In this document: positions 22,945 to 39,855 of the stretch, piece by piece
Position numbering within the stretch: the first letter of the stretch is position 1
Layout of the letters: the number at the start of each line of letters is the position of its first letter
Assembly: GCA_051859245.1 (NCBI GenBank)
Contig: JBHYGA010000005.1
Span: forward strand, 731,537-795,536
Direction: 5' to 3'
DNA from: Gemmatimonadaceae bacterium
Lineage (GTDB): Bacteria; Gemmatimonadota; Gemmatimonadetes; Gemmatimonadales; Gemmatimonadaceae
Length of the DNA: 64,000 nucleotides
Made by a program: the position numbers and the translations under genes
Notes under the pieces: model-generated
Told to the model about the DNA's origin: nothing
The model's database searches: none
The model's input: the letters and a program-made list of their open reading frames with translations, nothing else

Positions 22945-23306
22945 GTCAGACCGTACTGATCTGCGACGACGCGATTTTCATGCGGACGATGGTCGGTGAC
23001 ATCTTGTCGCAGGCTGGCTTCGAAATCGTTGGCGAAGCAGAAACTGGCGTGCAGGCGGTGGAGAAATACCGTCAGCTCCAGCCGGATCTTGTGACGATGG
23101 ACATCGTGATGCCGGATATGGGTGGCATTGATGCCGTTCGTGAGATCACCAAAAACGATCCGAAAGCCCGCATCCTGATGTGCAGCGCCATGGGACAGCA
23201 GGCCCTCGTGGTCGAAGCCATTCAGGCTGGTGCCAAGGATTTTGTGGTGAAGCCGTTTCAGCCGAGTCGTGTGCTGGAAGCGGTGCAGCGCGTGCTCGCG
23301 GCGTAA
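22941..23306 (+). CDS. cheY: Single-domain response regulator CheY (Bacillus/DifD-like)
   Basis: DDAIFMR, DLVTMDIVMP, CSAMGQQ, AKDFVVKPF. Confidence 0.93.
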   Translation: MSQTVLICDDAIFMRTMVGDILSQAGFEIVGEAETGVQAVEKYRQLQPDLVTMDIVMPDMGGIDAVREITKNDPKARILMCSAMGQQALVVEAIQAGAKDFVVKPFQPSRVLEAVQRVLAA

Positions 23307-23342: not shown

Positions 23343-25292
23343 GTGGACATCGCGCGCTACGCCGAACTCTTTCGCACCGAAGCGCGCGAGCACCTCGCCA
23401 GCATAGACGCGGCGCTCGCCACGTTAGCGGATGATCGCGCGCCAGCCGAACAGAGCGACGCGATCGATTCGCTGTTTCGCTCAACGCACACGATCAAGGG
23501 CATGGCCGGCGCGATGGGCTACGCGTCGGTGGAACAACTCGCGCACGCCAGCGAAACACTGCTGGCCGCGGTGCGCGAAGCCGCTGTGCCCGCGGACAGT
23601 ACGCTCGTCACGCTGTGTTATGAAGCGGTCGACGCGCTGGCGCAGCACATTGATGATGCGGTGGACGGGCAGGAAGACCGACCCGTTGCCAAAGCGCTGC
23701 TCGAGCGGCTCGCGTCCATGGCGGACTCGATTGAAATGGATCGCGTGCAGCGTACGACCGCTACGTGGCGTGTACCGTCGCTGCAGGATCTTGCGGGCGC
23801 GGCCGAACCGATCGCTGTCGACGAACCGGCGGCGTCCACGATTGAGTGGGTCGTCGCGCCACGCGAAACGGCAGAAACAACGAGCACCACGCGACTGGTC
23901 GTCATCGCGCTCGCTCCCGACGCGCCACTCAAATCGGTGCGCGCCCAGCTGGTGGTGGCGAAGCTCGAAACACTCGGTAAGGTGCAGGGCACCGAACCGT
24001 CGGTACAGTCGCTGTCGGATACATTCGACGGGGCGTTCACGGTGTTGCTCGACACAAGCGCGAGCGACGAGAACATCGAACGGGCCGTGCGCAGCGCCGG
24101 TGACGTGGCGCGCGTGCAAGTGCGTGATCCCGTGGTGCGACGTGCGTCGCGCGATGTGTTGCGGCATGTGCGCATTGATCTCAAGCGGCTTGATTCACTG
24201 CTCGATCTGGTGGGTGAGTTGGTAATTACGCGCGACCGACTGTTGCGGGTGGCCGATGCGTCGGGTGATCGACAGGTCGCGGCTGCCGCGCACGATGCAT
24301 CGCGTCTGGTGAGTGCGCTGCAGGAGGAGATTCTTCAGGCGCGGATGGTACCGGTGGGTCAGGTGTTCGATCGCTTTCCGCGACTGGTGCGCGATGTGGC
24401 GCGCGAACTGGGCAAGGAGATCGCGTTCTCCATGGAGGGGCGCGACATCGCGCTCGATCGCTCCATGCTTGATGCCATTGGTGATCCGATTGTGCACCTG
24501 CTACGCAACGCGATTGATCATGGTATCGAGTCACCGGAACAGCGGGCGCAAACAAACAAGCAGCCGAATGGTCGTTTGATTCTGCGCGCACGGCGCGACC
24601 GCGCGGCCATCGTGATTGCCGTGGAAGACGATGGTCGTGGCATTGATCGCAGCAAAGTGCTGGACCGCGCCATGGCGGAAGGACGCGTGGAGCGCCATGT
24701 CAGCGCGTTGTCCGATGAAGACCTGGTCAAGTTGCTGGCGCAGCCCGGCTTCTCCACAGCCGCCACGGTGACGGCTGTGTCCGGTCGAGGTGTGGGGATT
24801 GATGTGGTCGCGAATCGCGTTCGCTCGCTCGGCGGGTCGCTGGAAATTGAGAGCGAGCCCGGTCGGGGCACAATTTTTTCCATGCGACTGCCCGTCACGC
24901 TGGCCATTGTGCGTGCGCTGCTTGTGCAGGTGGGCGATCACACCTACGCGGTGCCTGCGGCCCACGTGGTGGAAGCGGTGGAGTTCGACGACGTCGCACG
25001 CCTCACGCTGCGAGGGAAAGAGGCCGTGTCCATGCGCGACGAAGTGGTGCCGCTGGTACGACTTCGTCGTGTGTTCGGGGTACCGCCGGCAGACGACGCC
25101 GGTGCGCAGCTTCTGATCGTGGACACAGGCGGCCGGCGCATCGCCTGTAAGGTGGACGCCCTGCTCGGACAGCAGGATATCGTGGTCAAAGCCTTTGATG
25201 CCGTGACGGGATCCTCGTCTCTGTTCAGCGGCGCGACAATTCTCGGTGACGGGAGCCCTGCGCTCATCGTCGATGTAGGAAGCCTCGCCTGA
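23343..25292 (+). CDS. cheA: Chemotaxis histidine kinase CheA
   Basis: HPt FRSTHTIKGMA, P2-like domain, LDLVGELVI, HLLRNAIDHG, DDGRGI, GFSTA, SGRGVGIDVV, C-terminal CheW domain. Confidence 0.97.
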   Translation: MDIARYAELFRTEAREHLASIDAALATLADDRAPAEQSDAIDSLFRSTHTIKGMAGAMGYASVEQLAHASETLLAAVREAAVPADSTLVTLCYEAVDALAQHIDDAVDGQEDRPVAKALLERLASMADSIEMDRVQRTTATWRVPSLQDLAGAAEPIAVDEPAASTIEWVVAPRETAETTSTTRLVVIALAPDAPLKSVRAQLVVAKLETLGKVQGTEPSVQSLSDTFDGAFTVLLDTSASDENIERAVRSAGDVARVQVRDPVVRRASRDVLRHVRIDLKRLDSLLDLVGELVITRDRLLRVADASGDRQVAAAAHDASRLVSALQEEILQARMVPVGQVFDRFPRLVRDVARELGKEIAFSMEGRDIALDRSMLDAIGDPIVHLLRNAIDHGIESPEQRAQTNKQPNGRLILRARRDRAAIVIAVEDDGRGIDRSKVLDRAMAEGRVERHVSALSDEDLVKLLAQPGFSTAATVTAVSGRGVGIDVVANRVRSLGGSLEIESEPGRGTIFSMRLPVTLAIVRALLVQVGDHTYAVPAAHVVEAVEFDDVARLTLRGKEAVSMRDEVVPLVRLRRVFGVPPADDAGAQLLIVDTGGRRIACKVDALLGQQDIVVKAFDAVTGSSSLFSGATILGDGSPALIVDVGSLA

Positions 25293-25343
25293 CCGGCGCG
25301 TCGCCTGACCGGCGCGAGACTTCTGACTTCTTCGGAGTGCACC

Positions 25344-25964
25344 ATGGAGGCCATCAGGACCCTCAAGTCCATCCAGCTCGATGCGTTGCGGGAAACCGCG
25401 AATATCGGGGCGGGCCACGCAGCCACTGCGTTGTCACAGATGACGGGCAGCACCATCATGATCAAGGTGCCCGCCATCAACATTGTGCAGCTGGAAGCCA
25501 TTCCGGCGCAGTTTGGTGACGAGGAAGAGCCCGTTGCCGCCGTGATGATGCACATGCTCGGCGATCTAAGCGGACGCACGTTGCTGGTGTTTCCCAAACC
25601 GACCGTGATGCGACTGGCCGAGTTGATGCTGCGTCGTCCGGTGGGCTCGTCCGTCGCGCTCGGTGAGCTGGAAACGTCGGCCATCAAAGAGGCCGGTAAC
25701 ATTCTGAGCGGCGCGTACATGAATGCGCTGTCGGATTTTCTGGGCATGTTGTTGCTGCCGTCACCACCGTCGCTGGTGATTGACATGTCGGCCGCGGTGC
25801 TGAGCAGCGCCTACACACAGTTTGCGTCCGACCCGGATTCCGTGTTGTGCGTGGAAAGCGAGTTCATGCTCACGGATCTCGGACAATCGCTGCGCGGGTT
25901 CTTCCTGCTGCTGCCGGATCCGGCCTCGCTGCAGGTCATGCTGCGAGCGCTGCGGCTCGCCTGA
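25344..25964 (+). CDS. cheC: CheC phosphatase
   Basis: Two E-x-x-N motifs: DALRETANIGAGHAATALS and SAIKEAGNIL. Confidence 0.93.
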   Translation: MEAIRTLKSIQLDALRETANIGAGHAATALSQMTGSTIMIKVPAINIVQLEAIPAQFGDEEEPVAAVMMHMLGDLSGRTLLVFPKPTVMRLAELMLRRPVGSSVALGELETSAIKEAGNILSGAYMNALSDFLGMLLLPSPPSLVIDMSAAVLSSAYTQFASDPDSVLCVESEFMLTDLGQSLRGFFLLLPDPASLQVMLRALRLA

Positions 25965-25987
25965 CGGCGAGGACGTTGGGTCACCCG

Positions 25988-28807
25988 ATGTCTACGGAAC
26001 CGACGGCCGATCGCAACATCGCGCTGTTGCTGGCACTGGCCGGTCGCATTGACGCGACGGATCCCGGTGCCTGCAACAATCTTGGCGTGTTGTACTACTC
26101 CAAGGGGCTGCACGCAGAAGCGGTGCAGGCGTTCTTGCAGGCGCTCGCGATTGCACCGCGCATGCGCGTGGCGGCGCGCAACCTTGAAGTGGCCGCGGCG
26201 AACACCGGTGCATGCGATGCGTCCATCGCGGCACTCGAAGCGCGGCTGACCGGCGATTCAGCAGACCTGTCCGCTCGGCGGGAACTCGCGCGACTGTTCC
26301 GGTTCCTCGGTCGCGCGGCCGACGCCGCAGCACAGCTGGACGCACTTCTGGCCCAGGAGCCAGACGATGCGCTCGCACTCCGCGAATACGGCGTGCTTGA
26401 ACAGCAGGGTGGAGATCTTCGCAAAGCGCAGCGTTGGTTTGAGCGTGCGCTCGCGATTGAGCCGGACGATCCCACGACGCGCTTGCATCTCGCCGAAGTG
26501 CACTATCATCGTGGTGCCAACGAACAGTCGTTGCGCGAGTTGGATGCGCTGCTGCAACTCGATGATCGTGTTGCCGAAGCGCATCTGCTGCGCGGGTTCG
26601 TGCTCGGAGATATGGGCTACCACGAAGCGGCGGGTGAAGCCGCGCGTCGTGCGAATGCACTTGATCCGGCCATGGCCACGCTGGAGTCGGATCTCTCACT
26701 CGATCCGCGTCTCGCGCCCGCAAGCGGAGCGCCAGCCGGCAGTGTGCCCGCGATTCCAATTACGCGCGGACTGCTTGATACACCGGCTATGCTCGGCGTG
26801 GTGAGCAATCAGTCACTCGCGCGTCACAGCTTAGGTCTCGCATTCCGTCAACGCGGCTACTTTGCCGAAGCACGCCGCGAGTTTGAGCGCGCGGCCGCGC
26901 AGGGTGAAGACGCCATGATGGTGCGTCATGCGCTCGCCGAGCTGGATCTGGTGCAGGGGTTCCACGTTGACGCAAAGGCACGCTACGCCATGTTGCTCGA
27001 AGAGCGGGGCGACGACGCGCGGTTGTGGAATGAGCACGGTGTCGCGTTGCATCAGGCTGGTGATGTCGCTGCGGCCGCCGAGAGTTACCGTAAGGCGCTG
27101 CGTGTTGATCCGCGCTATGCGCTCGCGTACAACAACCTCGGTGTGGCGCTCGAAGATCTGGGCGACGGTGTGCCGGCGCGTGAAGCGTTGCAGCGTGCCA
27201 CAACACTCGATGCGACGCTCGTGCGTTCACGGTTGAATCTCGGCCGTTGGCACATGCGTCATCGCGATCCCATGGCGGCGCTGGCCATTCTGCGTGAACT
27301 GGTGGCGTTTCACCCCACGCTCTCAGACGCCTGGCACGAGATGGGACTGGCACTGCTCGCGTTGCACCGCGTAGACGAAGCACGCACGGCGGTGACCACG
27401 GCCATTGAGCACCGGCCCGATCACGCGGAAGCACGGTACACGCTGGCACAGGTACTCGGTTCGCTCGGCGATCATGATGGCGCACTGCGTGAAACACAGC
27501 ACGCGCTTGGTTTGGCGCCTGTCCGGTCAGCACCGCGTCTCACCGTGGAGATTGCGCTGCACGAGGAGTGCCCCGAGTCTGTTGGTCGACTCGATCTCTT
27601 GTCGGTGGCGGAGCCCGAGCCGCTGGTGGGGGCGGAGATTTCCGATGACGACGTGGCCGCGCTGTTGCCGGAACGCGCACCGGTGCCAGGCGCGCGCAAC
27701 GACGCTCCTGCGTTCACCCTGCAGCAGCGCCTTGAAGCGGCTGATGTGCTGCTGGGCAGCGGTCAACACGAGGCCGCGCAGCGCGAGGCTCAGGATGTGC
27801 TGGTGCAGTGCACTGCGGCGGTGCGAGAGGAGCAGCCTCTGCTGGAAGCACACGCCATTGCGTTGATTGCAGATTCGTTCGCCGCAGCCGGAGTGCATGG
27901 TGAAGCGTACGAACGCTACAGTCAGGTGCGTGCGTTGCTGAAGCGAGACTCCGGTGCGCGAAGCGCGATCGAGGGCATTGAGCGGCGTGCGTTGCTGGGT
28001 GAGATTCGCTCGGCCTGTTTGCTGGGTCGCGGCGCCGAAGTGATTGCGCTGGTGGAGCGATTTGGGTCGCACGACACGCAGGATGCCGATGTGCTCGCGT
28101 TGCTGGCTGCATCGCACGCTGCACTTGCGGATGCGTATGGTACACGTGTTGCGCGGGCCGCGATTGATCGGTTGTTGCGGCTTGATCCCAGGAGCGCCGC
28201 GCTGCTGCACTTTGTGGGTGACGCGGCGGTGCACATGGGAGAATCCACGTTGGCGGTCGTGTTGTATCGACGCGCCCTCACGATTGATCCAACGCGTCCG
28301 TCGCCGCGTGTGGCGATTGCCCAGTTGCTGCATGCGAGCGGCAATCATCTGGCGGCCCGACTTGAACTCGTAGCGGCGTTGGCGACGGCGCCGAACTTTC
28401 GCGAAGCACGACTTACGCTTGCACGCGTGCACCGCGACAGTCAGCGCCCGACCGAGGCAATTGCTGTACTGGCGTCGCATCTTGAACGCGAGCCCGCAGA
28501 CGTTGACGCGCTCGTGGCGCTCGCCGAGTCGCTGCGCGCGGCCAATCGTGCAGAAGATGCGCGCACGGCCGTGCAACGGGCACGTCGATTCGAACCCGAT
28601 CACCCGGAAGCATTGTGGATGGACGGCGTGTTGCTCGCCGATCAGGGACGTACGCGTGATGCACGCTCCCGGTGGGGTCGTCTGATTGCGATGGCGCCAG
28701 GGTCATCGGCAGCGACTCGTGCGCGCGATGCACTCGCCCTGGCGATCGAACGATTCACGCCCTCGTCCATGGCAACCGCAACGCCCGCACGTCGGGAGAC
28801 ACGATGA
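25988..28807 (+). CDS. Large cytoplasmic multi-TPR protein (~939 aa)
   Basis: Many TPR consensus units (ACNNLGVLYYSKG, AYNNLGVAL, AWHEMGLAL). No signal peptide. Confidence 0.88.
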   Translation: MSTEPTADRNIALLLALAGRIDATDPGACNNLGVLYYSKGLHAEAVQAFLQALAIAPRMRVAARNLEVAAANTGACDASIAALEARLTGDSADLSARRELARLFRFLGRAADAAAQLDALLAQEPDDALALREYGVLEQQGGDLRKAQRWFERALAIEPDDPTTRLHLAEVHYHRGANEQSLRELDALLQLDDRVAEAHLLRGFVLGDMGYHEAAGEAARRANALDPAMATLESDLSLDPRLAPASGAPAGSVPAIPITRGLLDTPAMLGVVSNQSLARHSLGLAFRQRGYFAEARREFERAAAQGEDAMMVRHALAELDLVQGFHVDAKARYAMLLEERGDDARLWNEHGVALHQAGDVAAAAESYRKALRVDPRYALAYNNLGVALEDLGDGVPAREALQRATTLDATLVRSRLNLGRWHMRHRDPMAALAILRELVAFHPTLSDAWHEMGLALLALHRVDEARTAVTTAIEHRPDHAEARYTLAQVLGSLGDHDGALRETQHALGLAPVRSAPRLTVEIALHEECPESVGRLDLLSVAEPEPLVGAEISDDDVAALLPERAPVPGARNDAPAFTLQQRLEAADVLLGSGQHEAAQREAQDVLVQCTAAVREEQPLLEAHAIALIADSFAAAGVHGEAYERYSQVRALLKRDSGARSAIEGIERRALLGEIRSACLLGRGAEVIALVERFGSHDTQDADVLALLAASHAALADAYGTRVARAAIDRLLRLDPRSAALLHFVGDAAVHMGESTLAVVLYRRALTIDPTRPSPRVAIAQLLHASGNHLAARLELVAALATAPNFREARLTLARVHRDSQRPTEAIAVLASHLEREPADVDALVALAESLRAANRAEDARTAVQRARRFEPDHPEALWMDGVLLADQGRTRDARSRWGRLIAMAPGSSAATRARDALALAIERFTPSSMATATPARRETR

Positions 28808-29901
28808 GTCTCGAAGGCACGATTCGCGATCTTGGATTGCACGAAGTGGGGCAGCTGCTTTCGTTGAGCCGCAAGAGCGGCGTGCTCAGCGTGTCGTCGC
28901 TGCTGCGCGGACGTCGCGCCTGGATTCGATTTGCTGAAGGTGCCATTGTCGACGCTGGCGCAGACGATCCACCGGGTGCCGGCGAGGCCACCAGCGACGC
29001 GGCGAGCGGATCGCGACCACACGTGGAAGAGCAGGTACTCGACGTGCTGGCGTGGCGCGAAGGGAGATTTGCGTTTGCGCCTGAACCCGTTGGTGCGGCG
29101 AGTGCAAGTCGCGTGCGCATTCCTACCGATGCGATGCTCGTGGAATCGGCGCGTCGCGACGATGCATGGCAGCAGTTGGCAGATCGTGTACCATCGGCCG
29201 ATGTCGTGCCTTCCTTTGTGGACGTTGAGCCCAAAGCGCTCCCCTTGCTGCGCCTTGTGCCGCAGGAGTGGGAAGTCCTCACGCGAGTGGACGGGGTACG
29301 CACGCTGCGCACGCTGGCGCAGCTCCTGCAGCGCGATGTGATCGAGGTGGCCGGCATCGTGCATCGCCTCGTCGGTACGGGGTTGCTCACCGTGCGCGAG
29401 GGTGGTGCGCCGCGTCGCGTCATCACGCCGGTAAGCGGGGACATCGTGGAATCCGAGCTTTGGATTCCGCCCACCGCTGAAATGGCCGTATTCGACGCGG
29501 ATGCTGATCCCGATGATCTGGTCTTTGATCCGCTGCGCGCCGGCCTGCTGACCCCGCATGGTTCGCCGCGAATTACGCCGCACACCTTGTCCACACGCGG
29601 CTCGGAAACCCCAGTGAGCACCGTCACGCCCCCGGCACGACCAGCGGTTGCGTTCGAGGGGGCCGAAACGTCCTTGTCGGGGAGCCCGACGCACGCGGGA
29701 ACCGATGTCAAACCGGATGCGAGTGGCCTGCGCGAGCTGGGTGACTCGGCCGCTCGACGCGGTGACTTCACGTTGGCGCTCACCCACTGGAGTGCGTATC
29801 TGCGCGTGGCCGATCACGACCGCGATGCGGACCGCGTTCGTGAAGCGATTGGACTCGCGGCGCGACTTCAGGCGTTACTGCATCCAGCGTCGACTGAGTG
29901 A
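28804..29901 (+). CDS. DUF4388 (PATAN) domain protein with winged-helix-like and C-terminal TPR-like segments
   Basis: MSLEGTIRDLGLHEVGQLLSLSRKSGVL...WREGRFAF...DAMLVESARRDD. ATGA overlap with TPR gene. Confidence 0.85.
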   Translation: MSLEGTIRDLGLHEVGQLLSLSRKSGVLSVSSLLRGRRAWIRFAEGAIVDAGADDPPGAGEATSDAASGSRPHVEEQVLDVLAWREGRFAFAPEPVGAASASRVRIPTDAMLVESARRDDAWQQLADRVPSADVVPSFVDVEPKALPLLRLVPQEWEVLTRVDGVRTLRTLAQLLQRDVIEVAGIVHRLVGTGLLTVREGGAPRRVITPVSGDIVESELWIPPTAEMAVFDADADPDDLVFDPLRAGLLTPHGSPRITPHTLSTRGSETPVSTVTPPARPAVAFEGAETSLSGSPTHAGTDVKPDASGLRELGDSAARRGDFTLALTHWSAYLRVADHDRDADRVREAIGLAARLQALLHPASTE

Positions 29902-29985
29902 AGCGCCCGTCACCCGACGGGATTTTCAGCACCACATTGCGTTTTCGTCCGACGTGTGCAACGCGCGTCACCGAGGAGCGAGCAC

Positions 29986-30732
29986 ATGCCCATCGTCGAT
30001 CACGCCACCCGACTGATCACCTGCAAGTTGGTGTTCTGTGGGCCAGGCCGATCGGGAAAGACCACGAATCTGTCCTATCTGCATTCCGCATTGCCGGGTG
30101 AGCAGGTGGGACATTTGACGTCGCTCGCCACACGTCGCGACCGCACGTTGTTCTTCGACTACATGCCGGTAGATCTCGGATCCGTTGGCGCGTACAAAGT
30201 GCGCTTTCAGCTCTACACGGTACCGGGACAGCCGTATTACAAGGCGATTCGACAACTGGTACTGCAGGGTGCCGACGGCGTGGCGTTTGTCGCCGACAGC
30301 CAGCGTCACCGCTGGGACGACAATCTGGAGAGCCTGCAGGACATGCACGTCAATCTCGCCGAACACGGTGTGGATGCGCGTAGCCTGCCCATCGTGATGC
30401 AGTACAACAAGCAGGATCTCCCGGAATCGCTGGTGGCGTCGGTCGCGGAGCTATCGTCGGCGCTGAACTTTCGCAGCGTACCGGAGTTTGCGGCGGACGC
30501 GTTGCGCGGGCAGGGTGTGTTCGACACGCTGCGCTCGCTCGGCGTGCAAGTGCTGCGACGTCTGGGTGCGGAGGACGGCACCACAGCGGGAGCTCGCGCG
30601 CGTCAGGCGCTGGCCACACCTGTCGCGACTCCGGCGCAGCGTGCGGCATCGCTGCCGGTGCATCATCCCGCCGCGCTTCCCGCGTCGCTTGATTCGCTCG
30701 AACTTGTCAGTAGCGGGAGTGACCTGCTGTGA
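29986..30732 (+). CDS. mglA: MglA-family small Ras-like GTPase
   Basis: CKLVFCGPGRSGKTTNL, DRTLFFD, FQLYTVPGQ, GADGVAFVADSQ, QYNKQD. GAGGAG RBS upstream. Confidence 0.92.
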   Translation: MPIVDHATRLITCKLVFCGPGRSGKTTNLSYLHSALPGEQVGHLTSLATRRDRTLFFDYMPVDLGSVGAYKVRFQLYTVPGQPYYKAIRQLVLQGADGVAFVADSQRHRWDDNLESLQDMHVNLAEHGVDARSLPIVMQYNKQDLPESLVASVAELSSALNFRSVPEFAADALRGQGVFDTLRSLGVQVLRRLGAEDGTTAGARARQALATPVATPAQRAASLPVHHPAALPASLDSLELVSSGSDLL

Positions 30733-32687
30733 GTGGCCGAGCGCTCGATGGCGGATACCGCTTCGAGAATTTTGTTGTCGGTGCGTCCAATCGTCTCGCG
30801 CACTCTGCTGCGCAGCGCGTGGCCGATGCGCCAGGCAGTGCCTATAACCCACTGTTCATTTACGGCGGGCCTGGATTAGGCAAAACGCATCTTGCCGCCG
30901 CCATCGCGTATCACGCGCGGCAGTCGCACCCGGCGCTGAGAGTTGAACTCACGAGCGCAGAAGACGTGGTGGAACGCCTGCATCGTGCGATCGCCTCGGG
31001 GCAGCGCGAACAGTACGCCACGCACTTTCAGCAGGTGGACCTGCTGTTGCTCGATGATGTGCAGTTTCTTACGGGTCAGCGTGAAACACAAACTGAACTG
31101 TTGCGACTGTTCAACCTGATGCAGAGCGGTGGGCGGCAGCTGGTGATGACCAGTGATCGTCCGCCGGCGGAAATCCCCGACGTTGACCAGCGCCTCGTGT
31201 CACGTCTGTCGGGCGGATTGGTGGTTGATGTTGGTGCGCCCGATTTTGAAATGCGTCTCGCGATTCTGCGCAACAGCGCCGAAGAACGCGAACTCGTCTT
31301 CGTGGACGGCGTGCTTGATGAAGTGGCGCGACTTGCGCTTGGCAATGTGCGCGAGCTCAAGGGTGCGCTCAATCGGCTGGCGGCGTATCAGCAGCTCGAA
31401 CCGGCGCCGATCAATGCCGCGGACGTTCGCGCGGTACTCGGCGAACGCTTGAGTGGCGTTTCGGGGGCCGTGCCTGTGGTTCCGGACACGACGCGCGCGA
31501 AACCCGCGGAATACGACGGCTTTCTCGCCGACGTCACGCAAGAAGTGGAAACACGCGTGGAGCGTTGGCGCGTCACGCTGGGCGAGGCGTGTGCGTTCTG
31601 GCGGAGCGAAGGCTTCGTCACGGTGGTGCTTGAACGCGCCATGCAGCTGCCTGCGGCGCCAGATGTGAACGGCCTGCTGGCCACGTTTGCGGCGGCGGTT
31701 GACCACTTGCGCGGTCTGGAGATGCAAGCGGTGACGCTGGATCCGGGTGTACGCGGGCATCCTGCATTTCGTAATCCCGAAATGGTCGCGGAAGCGCAGC
31801 GTTTGCTCGATCGCGCGCTGGCCTCTGCGTTGCCCCTGCCGGCGCCCAATCCGCAGTATACCCGCAGCGGGCTGGAAGCCGGCTTGTCAAATCAACTGGC
31901 ACTCAAGGCCGCCGACGCGGCGATTGAACATCCGGGTCAGCGCTACAATCCGCTGTTCATTCACGGGCCAAGCGGCACCGGCAAAACACATCTTGCACAC
32001 GCGATTGCGAGCGCGCTGCGCGACATGAAGCCGCGCACCGCCGTGGCCTGTGTTGACGCAACCACATTTGTCGAAGAGCTGGTCGCGGCCATGCAGGAAG
32101 GTGGCGTGGAGCGCTGGAGAGCACGTTATCGCGCCGCCGAAGTACTGGTCATTGATGATGTGCATCAACTCGCCGACAAAGAGCGCACGCAGGAAGAGCT
32201 CTTTCATCTGTTCAATGTGTTGCATGATCGTGGTGCGCAGATTGTGCTGACCAGTGATCGGGCGCCGCGCGAGTTGCGCGGTATGGCCGATCGCTTGCGC
32301 TCGCGATTTGAAGGCGGACTGGTAGTCGTGCTGCAGCCGCCTGATCGCGCGTTGCGCGAACGGCTGGTGCGTCGCCTGCTGATCGAAGCCGGCTACGCGG
32401 ACGACGCAACACTGGTGTCGTACCTGTCCGATCGTGAAGCGACCAGCGCGCGTGAACTCGAAGGTGTGATTACCCGCCTTGCTGCGGCCGCAGATTTGCT
32501 GGCGGTGCCGCTGGATTTACCCCTGGCGCGACGCGAGCTGGAAGGCGTGACGCGCATGGTCGCGGCCACACCGCGCGCTGGCGTTCCGCTTCGCGACGGT
32601 GCGCAAGACGCCTTCTTCCTTGATCACGAAAAAATTCTCTGGGATTGGCCCGATGCCGGTGATCGTTTGCTCGAGGACTTCCGATAA
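30729..32687 (+). CDS. Tandem DnaA/Hda-family AAA+ protein (two domain III modules, no domain I or IV)
   Basis: Module 1: YNPLFIYGGPGLGKTHL, LLLDD, TSDRPP, RLVSRL, NVRELKGAL. Module 2: YNPLFIHGPSGTGKTHL, LVIDD, TSDRAP, RLRSRF, SARELEG. Confidence 0.9.
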   Translation: MSGRALDGGYRFENFVVGASNRLAHSAAQRVADAPGSAYNPLFIYGGPGLGKTHLAAAIAYHARQSHPALRVELTSAEDVVERLHRAIASGQREQYATHFQQVDLLLLDDVQFLTGQRETQTELLRLFNLMQSGGRQLVMTSDRPPAEIPDVDQRLVSRLSGGLVVDVGAPDFEMRLAILRNSAEERELVFVDGVLDEVARLALGNVRELKGALNRLAAYQQLEPAPINAADVRAVLGERLSGVSGAVPVVPDTTRAKPAEYDGFLADVTQEVETRVERWRVTLGEACAFWRSEGFVTVVLERAMQLPAAPDVNGLLATFAAAVDHLRGLEMQAVTLDPGVRGHPAFRNPEMVAEAQRLLDRALASALPLPAPNPQYTRSGLEAGLSNQLALKAADAAIEHPGQRYNPLFIHGPSGTGKTHLAHAIASALRDMKPRTAVACVDATTFVEELVAAMQEGGVERWRARYRAAEVLVIDDVHQLADKERTQEELFHLFNVLHDRGAQIVLTSDRAPRELRGMADRLRSRFEGGLVVVLQPPDRALRERLVRRLLIEAGYADDATLVSYLSDREATSARELEGVITRLAAAADLLAVPLDLPLARRELEGVTRMVAATPRAGVPLRDGAQDAFFLDHEKILWDWPDAGDRLLEDFR

Positions 32688-34312
32688 TGGCGATTCGCGG
32701 AAGTCTTAGCGAAGCAAGTCTGGCGGATGTGCTGCAGCTGCTGGCACTCGGTCAGAAAACGGGTGTGCTCAGTCTGGCGCGCGAAGGCAGTTTCGGGGCG
32801 GTGCACTTTGACCGTGGTGCGATCTGGCACGCATCTTTGGTGAATCGACGGGACCGACTGGCCGACCGACTGCTGCGCGCCGGCGTTATTGAGGCCGACG
32901 CGTTAGCGCGCATTCAGGCCGAGCTGCCGGATGACGACGACCGACAGCTCGCCCGACTGTTGCTCGCGCGCGAACTCGTGCCTGGCGACATGATCGCGCG
33001 CGAGTGCCGCGCGTTGATCGAAGAAATTGTGTGTGTGTTGTTCACGTGGAATGCGGGTACGTTCGCGTTTGAAGCGCAGCAGTCGCCGGCGGATCCGCTG
33101 ATCGTGGCCGTACCAGCGGATTCGCTGCTCATGGAAGCCGCGCGTCGCGTGGATGAATGGACGCAGATTGAAAAGAAGATTCCGTCGCTCGATCTTATCT
33201 TTGAGATCGATGTGGTGAGGCTGCAGCAAAGTGGCGTAGCGCTCACGTCTGATCAGTCGATCGTAGCACCGTGGCTTGATGGCACGCATGATGTGGCATC
33301 AATCGTCGAGCGGTCAGGGCTTGGCGAGTTCGCGGTCGGTAAAGCGGTGTACGGCTTGGTCACGGCCGGATTTGCGCAGCGAGTGGGCCGCAGCTCGGCG
33401 CGCCGTCAGCCGGCGCCGGAAAGTCGTGTGGCCGAGCACCGCAATCTTGGCGTGGCGTTCTACCGCACGGGCATGTATGACGAGGCCTCGCGGGAGTTCC
33501 GCCGTGTGCTCGAGCTGCGTGCCGATGATCTGGGCGCGCGCTTTCATCTGGGTCTGGTACACGTGCGTCGTGAAGCCTGGGATGCGGCCATCGACATGCT
33601 GCGGCGTGCGGCTGAACAGCTCGATGCCAAACCTGCGGTGTTGCAGGCCCTCGCGTATGCCTACGAACGCAGTGGGCAGCTGGAGTTGGCGGAGAGCACG
33701 CTGGCGGAAGCGGCACGTCGCGGCGGTTCTGAAGATCCGCGCGTGGCGTTGTCACAGGCGGTGGTGGCTACGCTGCGCGGTGATCTGCCACGCGCTGAAG
33801 AACGTCTGTCCACCGCACGCTCGCTGTGGGGAGCGCGCCAGCCCAGTGCCGTGTGGTTTCATCATGCGGGGCTCGCGGCAGCGCTGCGTGGTGAGACGGA
33901 TCGAGCGGTGGCGCTGCTTGAAGAAGGCACCGCGCTGCATCCGCACGCCACGGTGTTGTTCAATGATCTGGCCGTGGTGCAGGAGCGTCGCGGCGCTCAC
34001 GAAGCCGCGGCTCGTACGCTTGAACATGCACTGCTCGAAGAAAGTGGTCTGCCGCAGCTGCACAAGAATCTCGGCGACTACAAGTATCGTGCGCAGCAGT
34101 ATGACGATGCGTGTGACTCGTACGAGCGGGTGGTGCGACTTGCACCTGACCACGGTGCCGATGTGTGGCTGAAGATCGGCAATATTCACTATCGCCGCGG
34201 CGATCAGTTTGCGGCGCGGGAAGCCTGGGAACGAGCGCTGGCGATTGATCCAGGCAACGCCATCGTGCGCGGGAACCTCGGCGTATCGCGCGGACAGGAG
34301 ACCGCCGCGTGA
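32687..34312 (+). CDS. DUF4388 (PATAN) plus TPR repeat protein
   Basis: MAIRGSLSEASLADVLQLLALGQKTG, WNAGTFAF, LLMEAARRVDEW, then TPRs (EHRNLGVAFYRTG, LHKNLGDY, VWLKIGNIHY). Confidence 0.88.
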   Translation: MAIRGSLSEASLADVLQLLALGQKTGVLSLAREGSFGAVHFDRGAIWHASLVNRRDRLADRLLRAGVIEADALARIQAELPDDDDRQLARLLLARELVPGDMIARECRALIEEIVCVLFTWNAGTFAFEAQQSPADPLIVAVPADSLLMEAARRVDEWTQIEKKIPSLDLIFEIDVVRLQQSGVALTSDQSIVAPWLDGTHDVASIVERSGLGEFAVGKAVYGLVTAGFAQRVGRSSARRQPAPESRVAEHRNLGVAFYRTGMYDEASREFRRVLELRADDLGARFHLGLVHVRREAWDAAIDMLRRAAEQLDAKPAVLQALAYAYERSGQLELAESTLAEAARRGGSEDPRVALSQAVVATLRGDLPRAEERLSTARSLWGARQPSAVWFHHAGLAAALRGETDRAVALLEEGTALHPHATVLFNDLAVVQERRGAHEAAARTLEHALLEESGLPQLHKNLGDYKYRAQQYDDACDSYERVVRLAPDHGADVWLKIGNIHYRRGDQFAAREAWERALAIDPGNAIVRGNLGVSRGQETAA

Positions 34313-35127
34313 GCACCGTCGACGAGCGTTCCGTTGCGAACCTCGACGATGGACTGGATCGCCTGCTCGCAAAGATTGCGAGTGAGCACGGTGTCCCGTG
34401 CCTCGGGTACAAGCCGTCGTGTTTGCGCCGTCGCGTAAGCGTGCGCCTTCGTGCTACAGGCACTCAGAACTTCGCCGCGTACGCGGCGCTGCTCGATGCG
34501 CAGCCAGAGGAGTGGCCACGCCTGCTTGATGCGCTCACGATCAACGTGACTGGCTTTTTCCGGGACCACAGCGTGTATCGCGTGCTGCGTGAGCAGGTGA
34601 TCCCATCACTCATGGGAGCGCACCCGAATACACTTCGCGCGTGGAGCGCGGGCTGCGCCAGCGGTGAAGAAGCGTGGAGCATCGCCATGCTGCTCGCTGA
34701 GTGCGCGGGCGTGACGCGTACACAGGTGCTCGCCACGGACATCGATACGCAGAGCCTCGCACGAGCCACGGCTGGCGCGTACCCCGCGATTATTGCGCGC
34801 GAAATGCCCGAGGAGTTGCAGCGGCAGTGGTGGTCGGGGCACGAACCAGTGGTCGTGAGCGACGCGTTGCGGCGTTGCGTAACATTTGGGCGGTTCAACC
34901 TGCTCACTGATCAGGCACCGCCGTCCGCGTACGATCTGATCACCTGCCGCAACGTGCTGATCTATTTTGCGCGTGACGCGCAAGAGTCGCTCTTCATGCG
35001 CTTCGCCGACGCGTTGCGCATTGGCGGTGTGCTCGTGCTCGGCAAGGTGGAAATTCTGTCAGGGCCAGCGCGTGCGCGATTTGCGGCTATTGACGCGCGT
35101 GAGCGTATTTATCGGCGCGTGGCATGA
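34309..35127 (+). CDS. cheR: Chemotaxis methyltransferase CheR
   Basis: LTINVTGFFRD, WSAGCASGEEAWS, ATDID, DLITCRNVLIYF. Confidence 0.95.
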   Translation: MSTVDERSVANLDDGLDRLLAKIASEHGVPCLGYKPSCLRRRVSVRLRATGTQNFAAYAALLDAQPEEWPRLLDALTINVTGFFRDHSVYRVLREQVIPSLMGAHPNTLRAWSAGCASGEEAWSIAMLLAECAGVTRTQVLATDIDTQSLARATAGAYPAIIAREMPEELQRQWWSGHEPVVVSDALRRCVTFGRFNLLTDQAPPSAYDLITCRNVLIYFARDAQESLFMRFADALRIGGVLVLGKVEILSGPARARFAAIDARERIYRRVA

Positions 35128-35603
35128 CGGAGATTCGCGTGTCGATTGCCGACTATGCGGTGGCGCGGGGCGGAACACGTCTGATCACGGTGGGCCTCGG
35201 CTCGTGCGTGGCGATTGCGTTGCATGCTAAAGCGCAGAACGCAGGCGCACTCGCGCATGTGATGCTACCGCACGAAGCGCTGTCGAGCGATCGTTCAAGT
35301 CCGGGCAAGTTCGCGTCGTCGGCCGTGCCGCATATGCTCACGCAACTGAAAGCGCTTGGTGTGGTGGACGGACTTGAGGCGCGGCTGGTTGGTGGAGCAT
35401 CCATGTTTGAGCAACTGCTGCCAACTGGTGCCGTGCCGCTCGGCACTCGCAATGTGGCGGCGGCGCGCGCGGCCTGCGCGGCCGCGGGAATTCCGATTGT
35501 CGCGGAAGACACCGGCGGTGGTTTTGGTCGCAGCGTGTTCTTTGATATCAACGAAGGACGTTTAACGGTGCGCTCCGTGGCGCGTGGCGATGTTGAGCTC
35601 TGA
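35124..35603 (+). CDS. cheD: Chemoreceptor glutamine deamidase CheD
   Basis: TVGLGSCVAI, AHVMLP, GGASMF, GTRN, EDTGGGFGRSV. Confidence 0.95.
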   Translation: MTEIRVSIADYAVARGGTRLITVGLGSCVAIALHAKAQNAGALAHVMLPHEALSSDRSSPGKFASSAVPHMLTQLKALGVVDGLEARLVGGASMFEQLLPTGAVPLGTRNVAAARAACAAAGIPIVAEDTGGGFGRSVFFDINEGRLTVRSVARGDVEL

Positions 35604-36702
35604 CGTGACACGCCGCCGCCGCGTGCTTGTGGTGGATGACAGCGCCTTCATGCGCCGTCTGATTCGCGATCTCATCACCGATAGTGGTGAGTTTGATGTG
35701 ATCGGTGTGGCGAAGGATGGGACCGAAGCCATTCGCATGGTGCACGAACTGGACCCGGAGATCGTCACGCTCGACATCGAGATGCCCGGACTCGACGGCC
35801 TTGAGGTCCTGGGCTACATCATGAGTGAAGTGCCGCGCGCCGTGGTCATGCTTAGTGCCGGCGGGGGCGATGGCGCGGCCGCGAGCACGTTGCGCGCGCT
35901 TGAACTGGGTGCGGTGGATTTTGTGCGCAAGCCATCGGGTCCGATCAGCATCGACTTTGCGCGCGTTGCTGATCGGTTGCTTGATGCACTGCGTGCCGCG
36001 GCAGAAATGCGTGTGGAGAAGGTGCACGTGCTCGCGCGCCCCCTTGGTGCATCGCACGCCTCACGCCGATTGCGAGCGGTATCCACGCCGGCCACGTGCG
36101 CGGTGGTGATCGCCGCATCAACCGGCGGACCGGCGGCGCTCACGCAGGTGATTCCGCGCCTGCCACGAGGGTTGGGCGCGGCGGTGCTGGTGGTGCAGCA
36201 CATGCCCAAGGGTTTTACCGCGAGTCTCGCACAACGTCTTGATGCCGCCAGTCAGTTGCGCGTGTGCGAAGCGACTGATGGTGATCTTGTGCAGCCCGAT
36301 ACCGTGTACATCGCGCCGGGCGGTTTGCACATGCGCGTGCTCTCCACGGTGGACGGTCCGCGCCTGTCACTCGAGCACGGTCCCACCATGTGGGGCGTGC
36401 GTCCCGCTGCGGACCCGCTGTTTTCATCGGCAGCCGAGACGTTCGGTGCGCAACTGGTGGGTGTCGTGCTCACCGGCATGGGACGCGACGGTGCCGATGG
36501 CTTGCGGCTGGTGCGTGCGGCTGGCGGAGCAGCACTGGTGCAGGATCCGGCGCACGCCGTGATTCCGGGCATGCCGAATGCCGCGCTGCGGCACGCTGGT
36601 GCCGATGCCATTGTGCCAATCGGTGAAATGGCGCACATGATTGAACAACAGCTCGCGCTGCTGCCGCCATACACGCCGCAGGCTCGCGGAGGTGTCGCGT
36701 GA
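35590..36702 (+). CDS. cheB: Chemotaxis methylesterase CheB (REC plus esterase)
   Basis: VVDDSAFMRR, TLDIEMP, ASTGGP, VQHMP, LTGMGRDG. Start uncertain (35584-35605). Confidence 0.96.
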   Translation: MLSSDVTRRRRVLVVDDSAFMRRLIRDLITDSGEFDVIGVAKDGTEAIRMVHELDPEIVTLDIEMPGLDGLEVLGYIMSEVPRAVVMLSAGGGDGAAASTLRALELGAVDFVRKPSGPISIDFARVADRLLDALRAAAEMRVEKVHVLARPLGASHASRRLRAVSTPATCAVVIAASTGGPAALTQVIPRLPRGLGAAVLVVQHMPKGFTASLAQRLDAASQLRVCEATDGDLVQPDTVYIAPGGLHMRVLSTVDGPRLSLEHGPTMWGVRPAADPLFSSAAETFGAQLVGVVLTGMGRDGADGLRLVRAAGGAALVQDPAHAVIPGMPNAALRHAGADAIVPIGEMAHMIEQQLALLPPYTPQARGGVA

Positions 36703-37157
36703 CCATCACACACGACCTGCTCCTGTTCGACGTGGGCGCCGAGCGATTTGCGGTGCCGTTGGCGGCGCTGCGATCTGTCGAGGACAGCGTGCGTGTGCAA
36801 CGCACACGCGTTCCGCACGAGCGGGGTGTTGGTGTGTGGCGTACAGATGATGCGTTCGTTACGGTGTACGAGCCGGCGCCGGTGCTGGGTGTGTCGCTGC
36901 ACAGCGCGGAACCGCTGCTCATGTTATTGAGCGGTGCGAGCGGGAACGTGGGATTGCTCGTCGATCATGCGGAGGCTGCAGTGGCGGTTGACACCGGCGC
37001 GTTGCGCGATCTCTCGGGGCTTGGCGCTGGCGACCGCGTGGTGCTGGGTGCCTTGCGCCACGAGGAACGGTGGGTGACTCTGCTCGATGCCGGTGCACTG
37101 GTCGATGCGTTGGCCACGCGCGTTGGGTTGTCCTCGCACCAGGAGATGTCGTCGTGA
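36699..37157 (+). CDS. cheW: Divergent CheW-like protein (2)
   Basis: LLFDVGAERFAVPL, VGLLVD, VTLLDAGAL. Weak but recognisable CheW pattern. Confidence 0.7.
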   Translation: MTITHDLLLFDVGAERFAVPLAALRSVEDSVRVQRTRVPHERGVGVWRTDDAFVTVYEPAPVLGVSLHSAEPLLMLLSGASGNVGLLVDHAEAAVAVDTGALRDLSGLGAGDRVVLGALRHEERWVTLLDAGALVDALATRVGLSSHQEMSS

Positions 37158-37669
37158 TTTCACGCACAGCTGCGGCCCAGGCGATTGTTGATCACGCCAC
37201 GCTCGTCACGTTTTCTGTTGGCACGCATTTGCTCGCGGCGCCGGTGGAACACGTGGAACGTGTCCTGCGGTGGACACAGCCCTCGCCCATGCCGCAGCTG
37301 CCAGACTGGCTGGACGGCGTGATTCCCCACGGCGGACGCATGGTTCCCGTGGTGGATCTGCGCAAGCGCTTTGGTCAGACGCGTGTTGAGTCCAACGCGT
37401 CCACGCGCATCGTGGTGTTCGCCGTTGGATCAGACTGGCTCGGTGCGGCGGTTGATGGTGTGCATGATGTCATCACCGTGGACGCGACCGGCATCACGCC
37501 GCCGCCCCCCGTGGTGCGCGGACTGTCCGGGCAGTACTTGTTGGGTCTCGCGTCGCGCAACGATCGGGTGGTCCTCGTGCTTGATGTGGGACGTTTGCTC
37601 ACCTCCACGGAACAGCTCGCGCTGCACGACGCCGAACTGAATCACGATTCACCAGCGCCCGACGCATGA
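37154..37669 (+). CDS. cheW: CheW (3)
   Basis: LVTFSVG, PMPQLPDWLDGVI..GRMVPVVDLRKRF, GAAVDGVHDV. AGGAG RBS at 37141. Confidence 0.9.
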   Translation: MISRTAAAQAIVDHATLVTFSVGTHLLAAPVEHVERVLRWTQPSPMPQLPDWLDGVIPHGGRMVPVVDLRKRFGQTRVESNASTRIVVFAVGSDWLGAAVDGVHDVITVDATGITPPPPVVRGLSGQYLLGLASRNDRVVLVLDVGRLLTSTEQLALHDAELNHDSPAPDA

Positions 37670-38556
37670 CGGAACAGCTGTTGCCGACAGACGCGAGTCC
37701 CAACGCCCACACAACACTCGCCGAGCTGGTGCTCGCCGAGCAGTTGTTGCGTGAACGGTTGGCCGGCACACACAACGCGTCGGAGCGCGCGGCGCTGAAA
37801 GATGAGATCATTGCGCTGTTCCGCGCTGTTGAAGCCACGGAAGCGCGCGTGTCTGCGCTCAAGCAGTCAGTGAAGTCGCTCGCAGAAGAGTGGAAAAAAT
37901 CAGATGGTCGCGCGGCCAGTGGCTCGTCGCGCGGTGCGCAATCGCAGCGCGTGGATCATCTCGGCGCGTCCACATTTGTCGAGAAGGGCTGGTCGCGATT
38001 GGCGCTCGGAGACGCGCCGGCCGCGGAGGCCGCGCTGCACCGTGCATTGGCCCTGGCGCCCGGCAGCAATGAAGCCGAAGCGCTGCTCGGCTGGGCGCAG
38101 ATGATGCAGGAACAGTACGATGTCGCTCTGCTCACCTTTCACAATGTGTTGTTGCGCGAACCGCAGAACGCACTGGCGCGCACGAATGTGGGCTACATCT
38201 GTCTGCGCAAAAAGATCTATGGCGAGGCGATTGAGCACCTGACCAAAGCCATTCGCCTCGATAACGACCCCAAGGCCACGTTGTACGCGCACCTCTATCT
38301 CGGTTTGGTGTATTTCGATCGCGAGATGTACGACGACGCGCGAATGTTCTTTGCGAAGACGCTCGCGCTCGGCCCGAACATGCTGCAGGCGTATTTTGAA
38401 CTCGGTCGTGCGCATTGGTTTGCCGGCGATAAAGTGGCAGCGCGCGAGGCGTGGCGAGATGGCGCGGCGGCGAACAAGTTCAACCCATGGGGCAAGCGGT
38501 GCGCAGAGGTGCTGGCGGCGATCGAACAAGGGGAGCAACCTCCGCGCGAGGTGTAG
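37666..38556 (+). CDS. Coiled-coil plus TPR protein
   Basis: N-terminal heptads (LKDEIIALFRAVE), then TPRs (ARTNVGYI, AHLYLGLVY, AYFELGRAHW). Confidence 0.85.
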   Translation: MTEQLLPTDASPNAHTTLAELVLAEQLLRERLAGTHNASERAALKDEIIALFRAVEATEARVSALKQSVKSLAEEWKKSDGRAASGSSRGAQSQRVDHLGASTFVEKGWSRLALGDAPAAEAALHRALALAPGSNEAEALLGWAQMMQEQYDVALLTFHNVLLREPQNALARTNVGYICLRKKIYGEAIEHLTKAIRLDNDPKATLYAHLYLGLVYFDREMYDDARMFFAKTLALGPNMLQAYFELGRAHWFAGDKVAAREAWRDGAAANKFNPWGKRCAEVLAAIEQGEQPPREV

Positions 38557-39644: not shown

Positions 39645-39669
39645 CAGCTACTTCATGCGAGTCTAGGGT
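39641..39669 (+). promoter_or_regulatory. Putative sigma70 promoter for small ORF and tRNA-Val
   Basis: TTGACA (39641-46), 17-nt spacer, TAGGGT (39664-69). Confidence 0.55.
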
Positions 39670-39675
39670 TCCGCG

Positions 39676-39855
39676 ATGATTGTTGCGTCACCGACACATC
39701 GACCGCGTCGCACCGTGCTGTGGTGGGGGCTGGTTTTCGCCGCGCTGGCCGTTGGGTATGGTGATTTGTGGCGTGGTGGCATCACAATCGGGCCGATTAT
39801 GCTGGTCCTCGCCTATTGTGTGCTGGTCCCGATCGCCATCGTTCGGCGTTCGTAG
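39676..39855 (+). CDS. Small two-TM membrane protein, 59 aa (DUF3098-like; not in ORF track)
   Basis: Hand translation MIVASPTHRPRRTVLWWGLVFAALAVGYGDLWRGGITIGPIMLVLAYCVLVPIAIVRRS. Confidence 0.7.
   Translation: MIVASPTHRPRRTVLWWGLVFAALAVGYGDLWRGGITIGPIMLVLAYCVLVPIAIVRRS

Follow-up and report, generated by a model that had tools for sequence, protein, structure and literature searches.

Why does a gene for a protein built of DnaA-type ATPase modules lie in an operon of small-GTPase and chemosensory genes? To our knowledge, AAA+ modules of the DnaA type have hardly been described outside replication initiation and the proteins that directly regulate it. The gene in question is found in a 64,000-nucleotide stretch of the genome of a Gemmatimonadaceae bacterium (GenBank assembly GCA_051859245.1, contig JBHYGA010000005.1, positions 731,537 to 795,536 of the forward strand), which we refer to as the window and in whose coordinates all positions are given. 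As judged from the list of open reading frames (ORFs), their translations, and Pfam, it occupies positions 30729..32687 of the + strand, begins with GTG, and encodes a protein of 652 aa. A first-pass annotation, made from the DNA alone, had described the product as two intact DnaA AAA+ modules fused in tandem without a DNA-binding domain, and we named it dDnaA. The analyses below show that dDnaA belongs to a phylum-wide, selectively maintained family in which a known module is arranged in a new way and occurs in a signalling setting where it was not expected: the DnaA module has been duplicated, stripped of its DNA-binding domain, and fixed across the phylum in a small-GTPase/chemosensory operon. 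An ATP switch of the replication type thus appears to have been put to new use in cell signalling.

Each half of dDnaA has the features of a DnaA AAA+ domain III. Module 1 (residues 1-238; 30729..31442, + strand) was delimited from its domain envelope, its match to Bac_DnaA, and matches in PDB and Foldseek searches, and module 2 (residues 366-609; 31824..32555, + strand) from its domain envelope, Bac_DnaA, and PDB matches. Every motif string quoted in the first-pass annotation is present in the translation, namely Walker A (GGPGLGKT at residues 46-53 of module 1 and GPSGTGKT at 413-420 of module 2), Walker B (LLLDD, 106-110, and LVIDD, 473-477), sensor I (TSDR, 141-144 and 508-511), the arginine-finger box (RLVSR, 155-159, and RLRSR, 522-526), and sensor II (NVREL, 206-210, and SAREL, 573-577). 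When whole dDnaA was scanned with the Pfam family Bac_DnaA (PF00308), two stretches were matched (E 2.5e-105), and each half scanned separately also gave a match (residues 7-167, E 2.7e-53; residues 375-533, E 4.1e-51). Among solved structures, module 1 matched domain III of Bacillus subtilis DnaA (PDB 8bv3, E 2.2e-55) and module 2 matched Aquifex DnaA (PDB 1l8q, E 5.2e-38), with matches of dDnaA to the Hda entries of the PDB reaching only E 1e-7 to 5e-6. The sequence of module 1 is 41% identical to Escherichia coli DnaA, 36% identical to module 2, and 22% identical to E. coli Hda.

The predicted structure agrees with these assignments. An AlphaFold2 model of full-length dDnaA, calculated from 128 family sequences, had a mean predicted local distance difference test score (pLDDT) of 89.5 and a predicted TM-score (pTM) of 0.55, and Foldseek superimposed it on B. 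subtilis DnaA domain III with a TM-score of 0.94 and a root mean square deviation (rmsd) of 1.5 Å. The initiator-specific helical insert that had been proposed for both modules takes the form of a helical hairpin in the model, lying between strands 2 and 3 (helices 77-89/93-101 in module 1 and 444-456/460-468 in module 2), and the insert helices of both modules align with the matching region of DnaA, as expected of initiator-clade AAA+ proteins. The set of features that defines the AAA+ domain III of DnaA (Walker A and B, both sensors, the box VII arginine, and the insert) is present twice in the dDnaA chain.

The other domains of DnaA are absent. The dDnaA protein begins 5 residues before domain III, and when it was scanned in four pieces, neither Bac_DnaA_C (PF08299) nor DnaA_N (PF11638) was listed at E <= 1, with the module-2 piece represented by the best 25 of 49 families. 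Neither family occurs in the precomputed Pfam lists of the relatives (0/120 listed), and nearly all canonical DnaAs among the listed matches have PF08299 and most have PF11638. In addition, comparison of the middle region and the tail of dDnaA with alignments of DnaA domain IV and domain I by hhalign gave probabilities below 1%. From these results, we conclude that the first-pass annotation was correct in reporting no domain I and no domain IV.

The scores of dDnaA against models of complete proteins reflect this partial likeness. The DnaA equivalog model TIGR00362 gave 494.5 bits against a cut-off of 343.9, a total that is reached only by summing two stretches; the best of these covers profile positions 103-339 of 437, so that a single full-length DnaA match was not obtained. 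The other two DnaA equivalog models remained below their cut-offs (324.1 versus 410 and 241 versus 657 bits), as did the NCBIfam Hda model TIGR03420 (175.5 versus 194.8), two HdaA models (74.9 versus 297 and 61.3 versus 300), the model NF038214 for the IS21 helper IstB (120.9 versus 200), and a DnaC model (37.8 versus 357). The sub-threshold Hda score is in line with the absence of Hda-type features, and visual inspection of the N-terminal residues and the tail showed no Hda-type beta-clamp motif, although no formal search for it was made. An anti-phage defence protein was considered and rejected, as PADLOC returned short local matches around the P-loop regions and no full-length match.

The 127 residues that separate the two modules had been noted as an unexplained linker of ~130 aa containing the strings WRVTLGEA..WRSEGF. 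These strings are indeed present, at residues 279-296, but the region is not a plain linker. In alignments of 121 and 128 relatives, it consists of a variable, probably disordered linker (residues 241-261; 31449..31511, + strand), recognized by its low conservation, pLDDT below 50, and high ratio of nonsynonymous to synonymous substitution rates (dN/dS 0.4-1.1), followed by a family-specific helical middle domain (residues 262-367; 31512..31829, + strand) that is conserved to the same degree as the ATPase modules. In the models, the middle domain forms a five- or six-helix bundle that is predicted with confidence both within full-length dDnaA (pLDDT above 90) and by itself (pLDDT 86). It matched no Pfam family at E <= 0.01, with two chance-level matches (E 0.069 and 0.26) at E <= 1; Foldseek searches of the PDB gave a best E of 5 and 0 matches at E <= 0.001, and the ESM Atlas gave no usable match.

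The C-terminal end of dDnaA is likewise conserved. A second variable stretch (residues 606-626) precedes a tail with the motif FFLDxEKxxWxWPDxxxRLxEExR (residues 627-652; 32607..32684, + strand), which was recognized by its conservation and within which the other string that had been left unexplained, FFLDHEKILWDWPD, occupies residues 629-642. Among the 128 aligned family members, Trp-640 is conserved in 117, Lys-635 in 112, and Glu-634 in 111. A subgroup that includes cultured Gemmatimonas (P0107, P0117, and P0120) has lost the entire module 2 lid (approximately residues 550-622) and still has the tail. A single-module relative of 355 aa, P0252, consists of module 1, a short spacer, and the same tail motif, indicating that the tail accompanies module 1 also where module 2 is missing. 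Docking motifs commonly consist of a conserved peptide set off by a flexible spacer, and the tail may be read as such an element. One other proposal for the tail is not supported: MAFFT aligned it to the helix of domain IV in E. coli DnaA, and hhalign gave this pairing a probability of 0.2% over 20 columns, leaving the idea of a domain IV remnant as no more than a lead.

The genes on either side of dDnaA place it in a signalling operon. In the window, dDnaA lies within one long, operon-like + strand array in which che, TPR, PATAN, and mglA genes precede it and a PATAN+TPR gene and further che genes follow. The immediate upstream neighbor (29956..30732, + strand) encodes a 258-aa MglA homolog that matches Myxococcus xanthus MglA (PDB 5ymx) with E 5.5e-61 over residues 12-205, and its stop codon overlaps the dDnaA start codon by four bases (GTGA, 30729-30732). 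Immediately downstream (32687..34312, + strand) is a gene for a 541-aa protein with a PATAN (DUF4388) domain (Pfam E 8e-28) and TPR families, whose start overlaps the dDnaA stop codon (TAATG, 32685-32689). Both overlaps had been reported in the first-pass annotation and were found again in the window.

This arrangement is conserved. In a sample of 32 related loci, with counts limited to those having enough flanking DNA, mglA is directly upstream of the dDnaA gene in all 29 loci with upstream flank, the PATAN+TPR gene is directly downstream in all 30 loci with downstream flank, and each of the 22 loci with flank reaching far enough contains cheA. The stop of dDnaA and the start of the PATAN+TPR gene are coupled in 27/27 loci (three partial loci are omitted from this count): in 24 they overlap (TAATG, TGATG, or TAGTG), in 2 they abut, and in 1 they are separated by a single base. 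The link of dDnaA to mglA and to the DUF4388/TPR gene that had been proposed from one genome is far stronger than that genome alone could show. In two deep-branching loci, L027 and L034, the PATAN gene is separated from mglA by two additional genes directly upstream of the latter, one for a TPR+Roadblock/LC7 fusion and the other for a stand-alone Roadblock/LC7 protein (positions 7770-8926 of L027 and 7749-8920 of L034). Roadblock/LC7 is the family of MglB, the GTPase-activating protein (GAP) of MglA.

The dDnaA architecture is widespread within one phylum. A word-index search listed at least 120 relatives with 58-98% identity, nearly all of ~650 aa, and a search of representatives clustered at 50% identity added many more full-length, single-stretch matches, down to 32% identity; more than 100 of the relatives are full length. 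Misassembly is excluded as the source of the tandem arrangement, since some relatives are encoded on megabase-size contigs, among them P0086 (5.3 Mb) and P0117 (5.2 Mb). All 15 tandem-type proteins whose source name includes a taxon are from Gemmatimonadota, and the six nearest ESM Atlas clusters (593-663 aa) are all labeled "commonest Gemmatimonadota". A genome scan, which was built on patterns from the query and favors close relatives, found 32 tandem loci, all in metagenome-assembled genomes (MAGs) of Gemmatimonadota, and 48 Chloroflexota loci that match over a single AAA+ module. Four of these Chloroflexota loci, read as ORFs of 458-467 aa, served as canonical DnaAs in the trees described below.

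The two modules have diverged in different ways, as seen when residues were counted in 128 family members and compared with 187 canonical DnaAs and with E. coli Hda. The Walker A and B motifs are both intact in 125/128 copies of module 1 and in 102/128 copies of module 2, and in module 1 the ATP-site residues Lys-52 and Asp-109 are found in 127 and 128 of the 128 members, respectively. The sensor II arginine is present in 119/128 copies of module 1 and 96/128 of module 2, and the arginine finger (E. coli Arg-285) in 107/128 and 108/128; both arginines are found in 187/187 canonical DnaAs and in E. coli Hda. Arg-227 of E. coli DnaA is required for unwinding; its position is Gln-101 in module 1 (Gln in 54/128 and Arg in 17/128) and Arg-468 in module 2 (Arg in 102/128), with Arg in 183/187 canonical DnaAs and a gap in E. 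coli Hda. In addition, module 2 keeps the equivalents of E. coli Leu-290, Arg-281, and Arg-285. Val-211 and Arg-245 of E. coli DnaA belong to the H/B motifs that bind single-stranded DNA (ssDNA) and hold the unwound origin (PMC9198467). The position of Val-211 is His-85 in module 1 (His in 69/128) and Val-452 in module 2 (Ile or Val in 94/128), compared with Ile, Val, or Leu in 178/187 canonical DnaAs and Leu in E. coli Hda. The position of Arg-245 is Glu-119 in module 1 (Glu in 94/128) and Arg-486 in module 2 (Arg in 98/128), compared with Arg or Lys in 129/187 canonical DnaAs and Leu in E. coli Hda.

Module 1, which is closer to DnaA overall, looks like a pure nucleotide switch that has a near-invariant ATP site and has lost the ssDNA-contact residues of DnaA. 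Module 2 is more diverged overall and has a looser ATP site, yet retains the DnaA-specific working surface. For the whole of dDnaA, comparison with five relatives gave dN/dS values of 0.06-0.16, with saturation of dS. By region, the values were 0.02-0.19 for the modules and the middle domain (0.04-0.11 for the middle domain) and 0.4-1.1 for the linker at residues 241-261. At the level of codon changes, these comparisons show that both modules, the middle domain, and the tail are under purifying selection, and that the linker evolves almost neutrally.

The history of the two modules was analyzed in a maximum-likelihood tree of 82 module sequences. In this tree, the module 1 sequences form a clade (support 100/99) nested among canonical DnaAs, and 33 of the 34 module 2 sequences form another clade (100/99). 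A branch with support 97/92 sets the latter, along with the long-branched Hda, apart from module 1 and DnaA. The branching order is alike within the two clades, and because the module trees mirror each other, they point to one old fusion followed by co-divergence. When the two modules were constrained to one clade, the approximately unbiased (AU) test did not reject this topology (ΔlnL 14.08, p = 0.145). Internal duplication with faster change in module 2 and fusion of two lineages are therefore both possible origins, between which the trees do not distinguish. A quick tree with 25 DnaAs placed module 1 with planctomycete-type and unnamed DnaAs and not with P0484, a protein from one Gemmatimonadota MAG with the full DnaA_N, AAA+, and DnaA_C architecture. 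These placements are to be read with the sampling in mind: the first tree included 13 DnaAs and the second 25, and Hda was represented by a single sequence on a long, unstable branch. P0215 was excluded from the trees, as its module 1 is split into two pieces. Another protein, P0219, was rejected as the canonical DnaA of the phylum since it is of myxobacterial or deltaproteobacterial type. P0236 has few close relatives, and its list of matches includes the canonical Gemmatimonadota DnaA P0484.

How does dDnaA compare with known systems? Each of its modules resembles DnaA in being a full domain III with Walker A and B, sensors I and II, the box VII arginines, and the insert. The differences are that dDnaA has two modules per chain and lacks domains I and II and the domain IV helix-turn-helix, that its middle domain and tail motif are absent from DnaA, that its gene is in a mglA/PATAN/che operon and not beside dnaN, and that its module 1 is without equivalents of Val-211, Arg-245, and Arg-227. 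The Hda/HdaA proteins are also DnaA-related AAA+ proteins without DNA-binding domains, and Hda acts on DnaA through contact between AAA+ domains; however, Hda has a single module of about 230-250 aa, and dDnaA has two. DnaC, DnaI, and IstB, which are ATP switches that assemble into open spirals, share with dDnaA an initiator-type AAA+ domain and the lack of a duplex-DNA-binding domain, but their models gave sub-threshold matches only, and these proteins are not tandem and are encoded in other gene contexts. Type II double-ring AAA+ proteins (p97, NSF, and Rix7) do have two AAA+ modules per polypeptide, but Foldseek comparisons gave TM-scores of 0.24-0.37 and rmsd values of 15-25 Å, and the dDnaA modules are separated by a 127-residue insert. 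The initiator-clade helical insert is, in addition, expected to disfavor closed rings. The dDnaA locus resembles the MglA/MglB systems of Myxococcus and Thermus in having a true MglA next door, TPR and PATAN proteins, and, in deep-branching relatives, Roadblock/LC7 proteins. It differs from them in that no AAA+ or DnaA-type component has been described there and in that the dDnaA module is embedded in a che operon.

Based on the anatomy of dDnaA combined with its gene context, we tentatively favor, at slightly less than an even chance, the reading that dDnaA is an ATP-gated switch or adaptor subunit of a polarity module of MglA, PATAN, and TPR proteins that is wired to the Che pathway in Gemmatimonadota. 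Initiator-type AAA+ proteins are ATP-dependent assembly switches, not motors. In the mechanism that we envisage, module 1, with its near-invariant ATP site, would be the nucleotide switch. ATP would probably drive arginine-finger-mediated, head-to-tail association within a chain, between chains, or both, since other initiator-clade AAA+ proteins associate in this way, and hydrolysis would reverse the association. The middle domain and the WxWP tail, each beside a flexible stretch, would dock the products of neighboring genes. Of these, the PATAN/TPR protein is the first candidate because TPR domains bind peptides, MglA would be the second, and module 2 would serve as the effector or output face. 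Consistent with this reading, dDnaA has no DNA-binding or DnaB- or clamp-interaction domains, one relative is fused to a REC domain (P0230, described below), the L027 and L034 loci contain Roadblock genes, and the synteny is conserved and coupled. Published work supports the gene context and not the DnaA part. MglA genes are described as occasionally lying beside PATAN genes in PMC4316618, in which "DnaA" occurs 0 times. SgmX, a protein made entirely of TPRs, uses the C-terminal ones to bind MglA-GTP (PMC7668184), and in regulators of chemosensory origin PATAN serves as the output domain that binds proteins (bioRxiv 10.1101/2021.06.11.447907).

Several observations weigh against the polarity switch. 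Module 2 keeps the ssDNA-contact residues and the AID-1 arginine that are lost from module 1 and from E. coli Hda, and this retention is unexpected for a pure protein scaffold. With arginine fingers in 107-108 of the 128 members, finger-dependent assembly may not hold across the family, with the qualification that alignment error can mimic loss of the finger in distant members; the correlated losses of arginine fingers and ATP sites gave no clear direction as to which finger serves which site. The first-pass annotation had called dDnaA a covalent DnaA pseudo-dimer, of which the two-module anatomy stands. Packing as a pseudo-dimer is a different matter, as the mutual placement of the modules is not settled by a model with pTM 0.55. 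The evidence from gene neighborhood is circumstantial, and cheR, cheD, and cheW are missing from several loci although the triad of mglA, dDnaA, and PATAN-TPR genes stays. Furthermore, the cluster in the window is itself without an MglB-like gene, as no Roadblock/LC7 gene was recognized between 22345 and 39644, an interval in which there is also no space for one.

Some of the same observations lead to an alternative that we regard as possible though doubtful, namely that dDnaA is a regulator of replication initiation, for which Hda is the model. In this case, module 2 would co-assemble either with unwound DNA at the origin or with true DnaA through the AAA+ domain of the latter, and it would cap, poison, or stimulate hydrolysis in the DnaA filament, thereby relaying the state of MglA and the Che pathway to chromosome replication. 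The equivalents of Val-211, Arg-245, Arg-227, Leu-290, Arg-281, and Arg-285 that module 2 keeps argue for such a role, and the initiator-specific insert in both modules, the nesting of module 1 among canonical DnaAs, and the position of the cluster directly upstream of the division/cell-wall (dcw) cluster in the window and in relatives agree with it. The retained residues may, however, be merely ancestral. There is no domain IV with which to reach oriC, no domain I, no recognized clamp-binding motif, and no replication gene in the conserved neighborhood; moreover, the module 2 lid with its sensor II is deleted in the Gemmatimonas subgroup, and the ATP site of module 2 is degenerate in 26/128 members. 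An unlikely combination of the two proposals would have module 2 insert into or cap the DnaA-ssDNA filament at the origin while MglA and the PATAN/TPR protein hold module 1, the middle domain, and the tail, so that polarity or a sensed signal would gate initiation, for instance in the budding cell cycle that has been reported for Gemmatimonas. The first-pass annotation had named both the capping or poisoning of DnaA filaments and an ATP-dependent scaffold for the polarity module as possible functions. Of these two, the gene context favors the scaffold, and the residues of module 2 keep the link to replication alive.

Two further explanations receive less weight. By analogy with the ParA-like ATPases that are found in che operons of other bacteria, dDnaA might position or segregate the chemosensory array encoded by the same operon, which we consider improbable. 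The dDnaA gene does lie inside a che operon with three cheW-type genes, cheA, cheY, cheC, cheR, cheD, and cheB, and no receptor gene was recognized among the ORFs scanned from 23343 to 41914, which leaves room for a cytoplasmic array. Yet the invariant partners of dDnaA are mglA and the PATAN/TPR gene and not the che genes, DnaA-type AAA+ proteins are not known as positioning ATPases, and dDnaA is without a duplex-DNA-binding domain. We assign next to no likelihood to the explanation that the gene is functionless, being a decaying or accidental dnaA duplicate or an artefact of assembly. Some relatives are truncated or have Arg/Ala-rich, out-of-frame tails (P0225, P0231, P0238, P0221, and P0216), which speaks for it. 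This explanation is nevertheless refuted by the conservation data, as the more than 100 full-length relatives of ~650 aa extend to 32% identity and include some on megabase contigs, and every domain is under purifying selection, the module trees are mirrored, and the synteny is conserved. The findings that could have overturned the tandem architecture itself, a domain IV or a misassembled gene, did not appear either.

If dDnaA is a scaffold, it adds an ATP-driven component to polarity modules that have so far been described as systems of a GTPase, a GAP, and a guanine nucleotide exchange factor. If dDnaA is still in contact with DnaA or unwound DNA, it would connect polarity or chemosensing directly to the control of replication, a coupling that has long been sought in bacteria with asymmetric cell cycles. 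In either case, the family is in the databases solely under generic or misleading names. The JGI names relatives "chromosomal replication initiator protein DnaA", and some sources call relatives DnaA because two partial matches add up past the TIGR00362 cut-off. The DnaA naming of dDnaA relatives is likely a systematic misannotation, and as the summed modules pass this equivalog cut-off, Gemmatimonadota genomes can appear to have two dnaA genes. A search of the literature, with subscription journals outside its coverage, found no description of a protein with tandem DnaA AAA+ modules, nor of any DnaA-type protein that partners MglA.

Some relatives of dDnaA depart from the common architecture. 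P0230 (738 aa, on a 15-kb contig) is collinear with dDnaA through module 1, the middle domain, and a module 2 with degenerate Walker A and B motifs, and it ends in a response-regulator receiver (REC) domain (residues 613-728) that replaces the module 2 lid and the tail. P0184 (673 aa, on a 2.6-kb contig) lacks the middle domain; its two DnaA AAA+ modules look canonical and precede a true domain IV (Bac_DnaA_C). This protein represents either another kind of tandem DnaA or an artefact of assembly. P0199 (1876 aa) and P0201 (1990 aa) combine two widely spaced DnaA-type AAA+ modules with an N-terminal MshEN domain, which is known from pilus and secretion ATPases. In P0225, P0231, P0238, P0221, and P0216, module 1 is followed by the Arg/Ala-rich sequence; these are most likely frameshifted calls in high-GC DNA and not true single-module forms.

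The remainder of the array in the window, all of it on the + strand, contains the following genes. The che genes begin with a cheW-like gene (22345-22944) and cheY (22941-23306), both named from their translations alone with no family scan, and continue with cheA (23343-25292) and cheC (25344-25964), which were assigned from the NCBIfam CheA and CheC models. Between these and mglA are ORFs for a large TPR protein (25847..28807; 986 aa as the longest ORF, with many TPR families) and for a second PATAN (DUF4388) protein (28672..29901; 409 aa as the longest ORF, Pfam DUF4388 E 1.1e-17), both of which are syntenic in related loci. Beyond the PATAN+TPR gene are cheR (34309-35127; Pfam CheR), cheD (35124-35603; NCBIfam CheD), cheB (35584-36702; NCBIfam CheB), cheW (36699-37157), and a further cheW copy (37070-37669), the last two identified by the Pfam and NCBIfam CheW models. 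The che content of the array is therefore three cheW genes and one each of cheY, cheA, cheC, cheR, cheD, and cheB, and no chemoreceptor (MCP) gene was recognized among the ORFs scanned between 23343 and 41914. A TPR gene (37666-38556) lies downstream of the che genes. Between the che/mglA array and rsmH are genes for an MA-superfamily peptidase-like protein (38451-39644) and a further TPR protein (40019-41914), both syntenic in most related loci; the array is then followed by the dcw cluster, from rsmH to ftsZ, and the same order is found in relatives.

Two smaller features of the window are of note. Past the part that aligns with solved MglA (residues 12-205), the MglA homolog continues in an Ala- and Pro-rich C-terminal extension of ~50 residues; tblastn matches to this protein in relatives mostly end before the extension, which thus appears to be variable. 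Upstream of the che genes, the adjacent ORFs at 20052-20858 and 20779-21405 both score above the TIGR00077 cut-off for the lipoprotein signal peptidase LspA and look like a tandem duplication of lspA.

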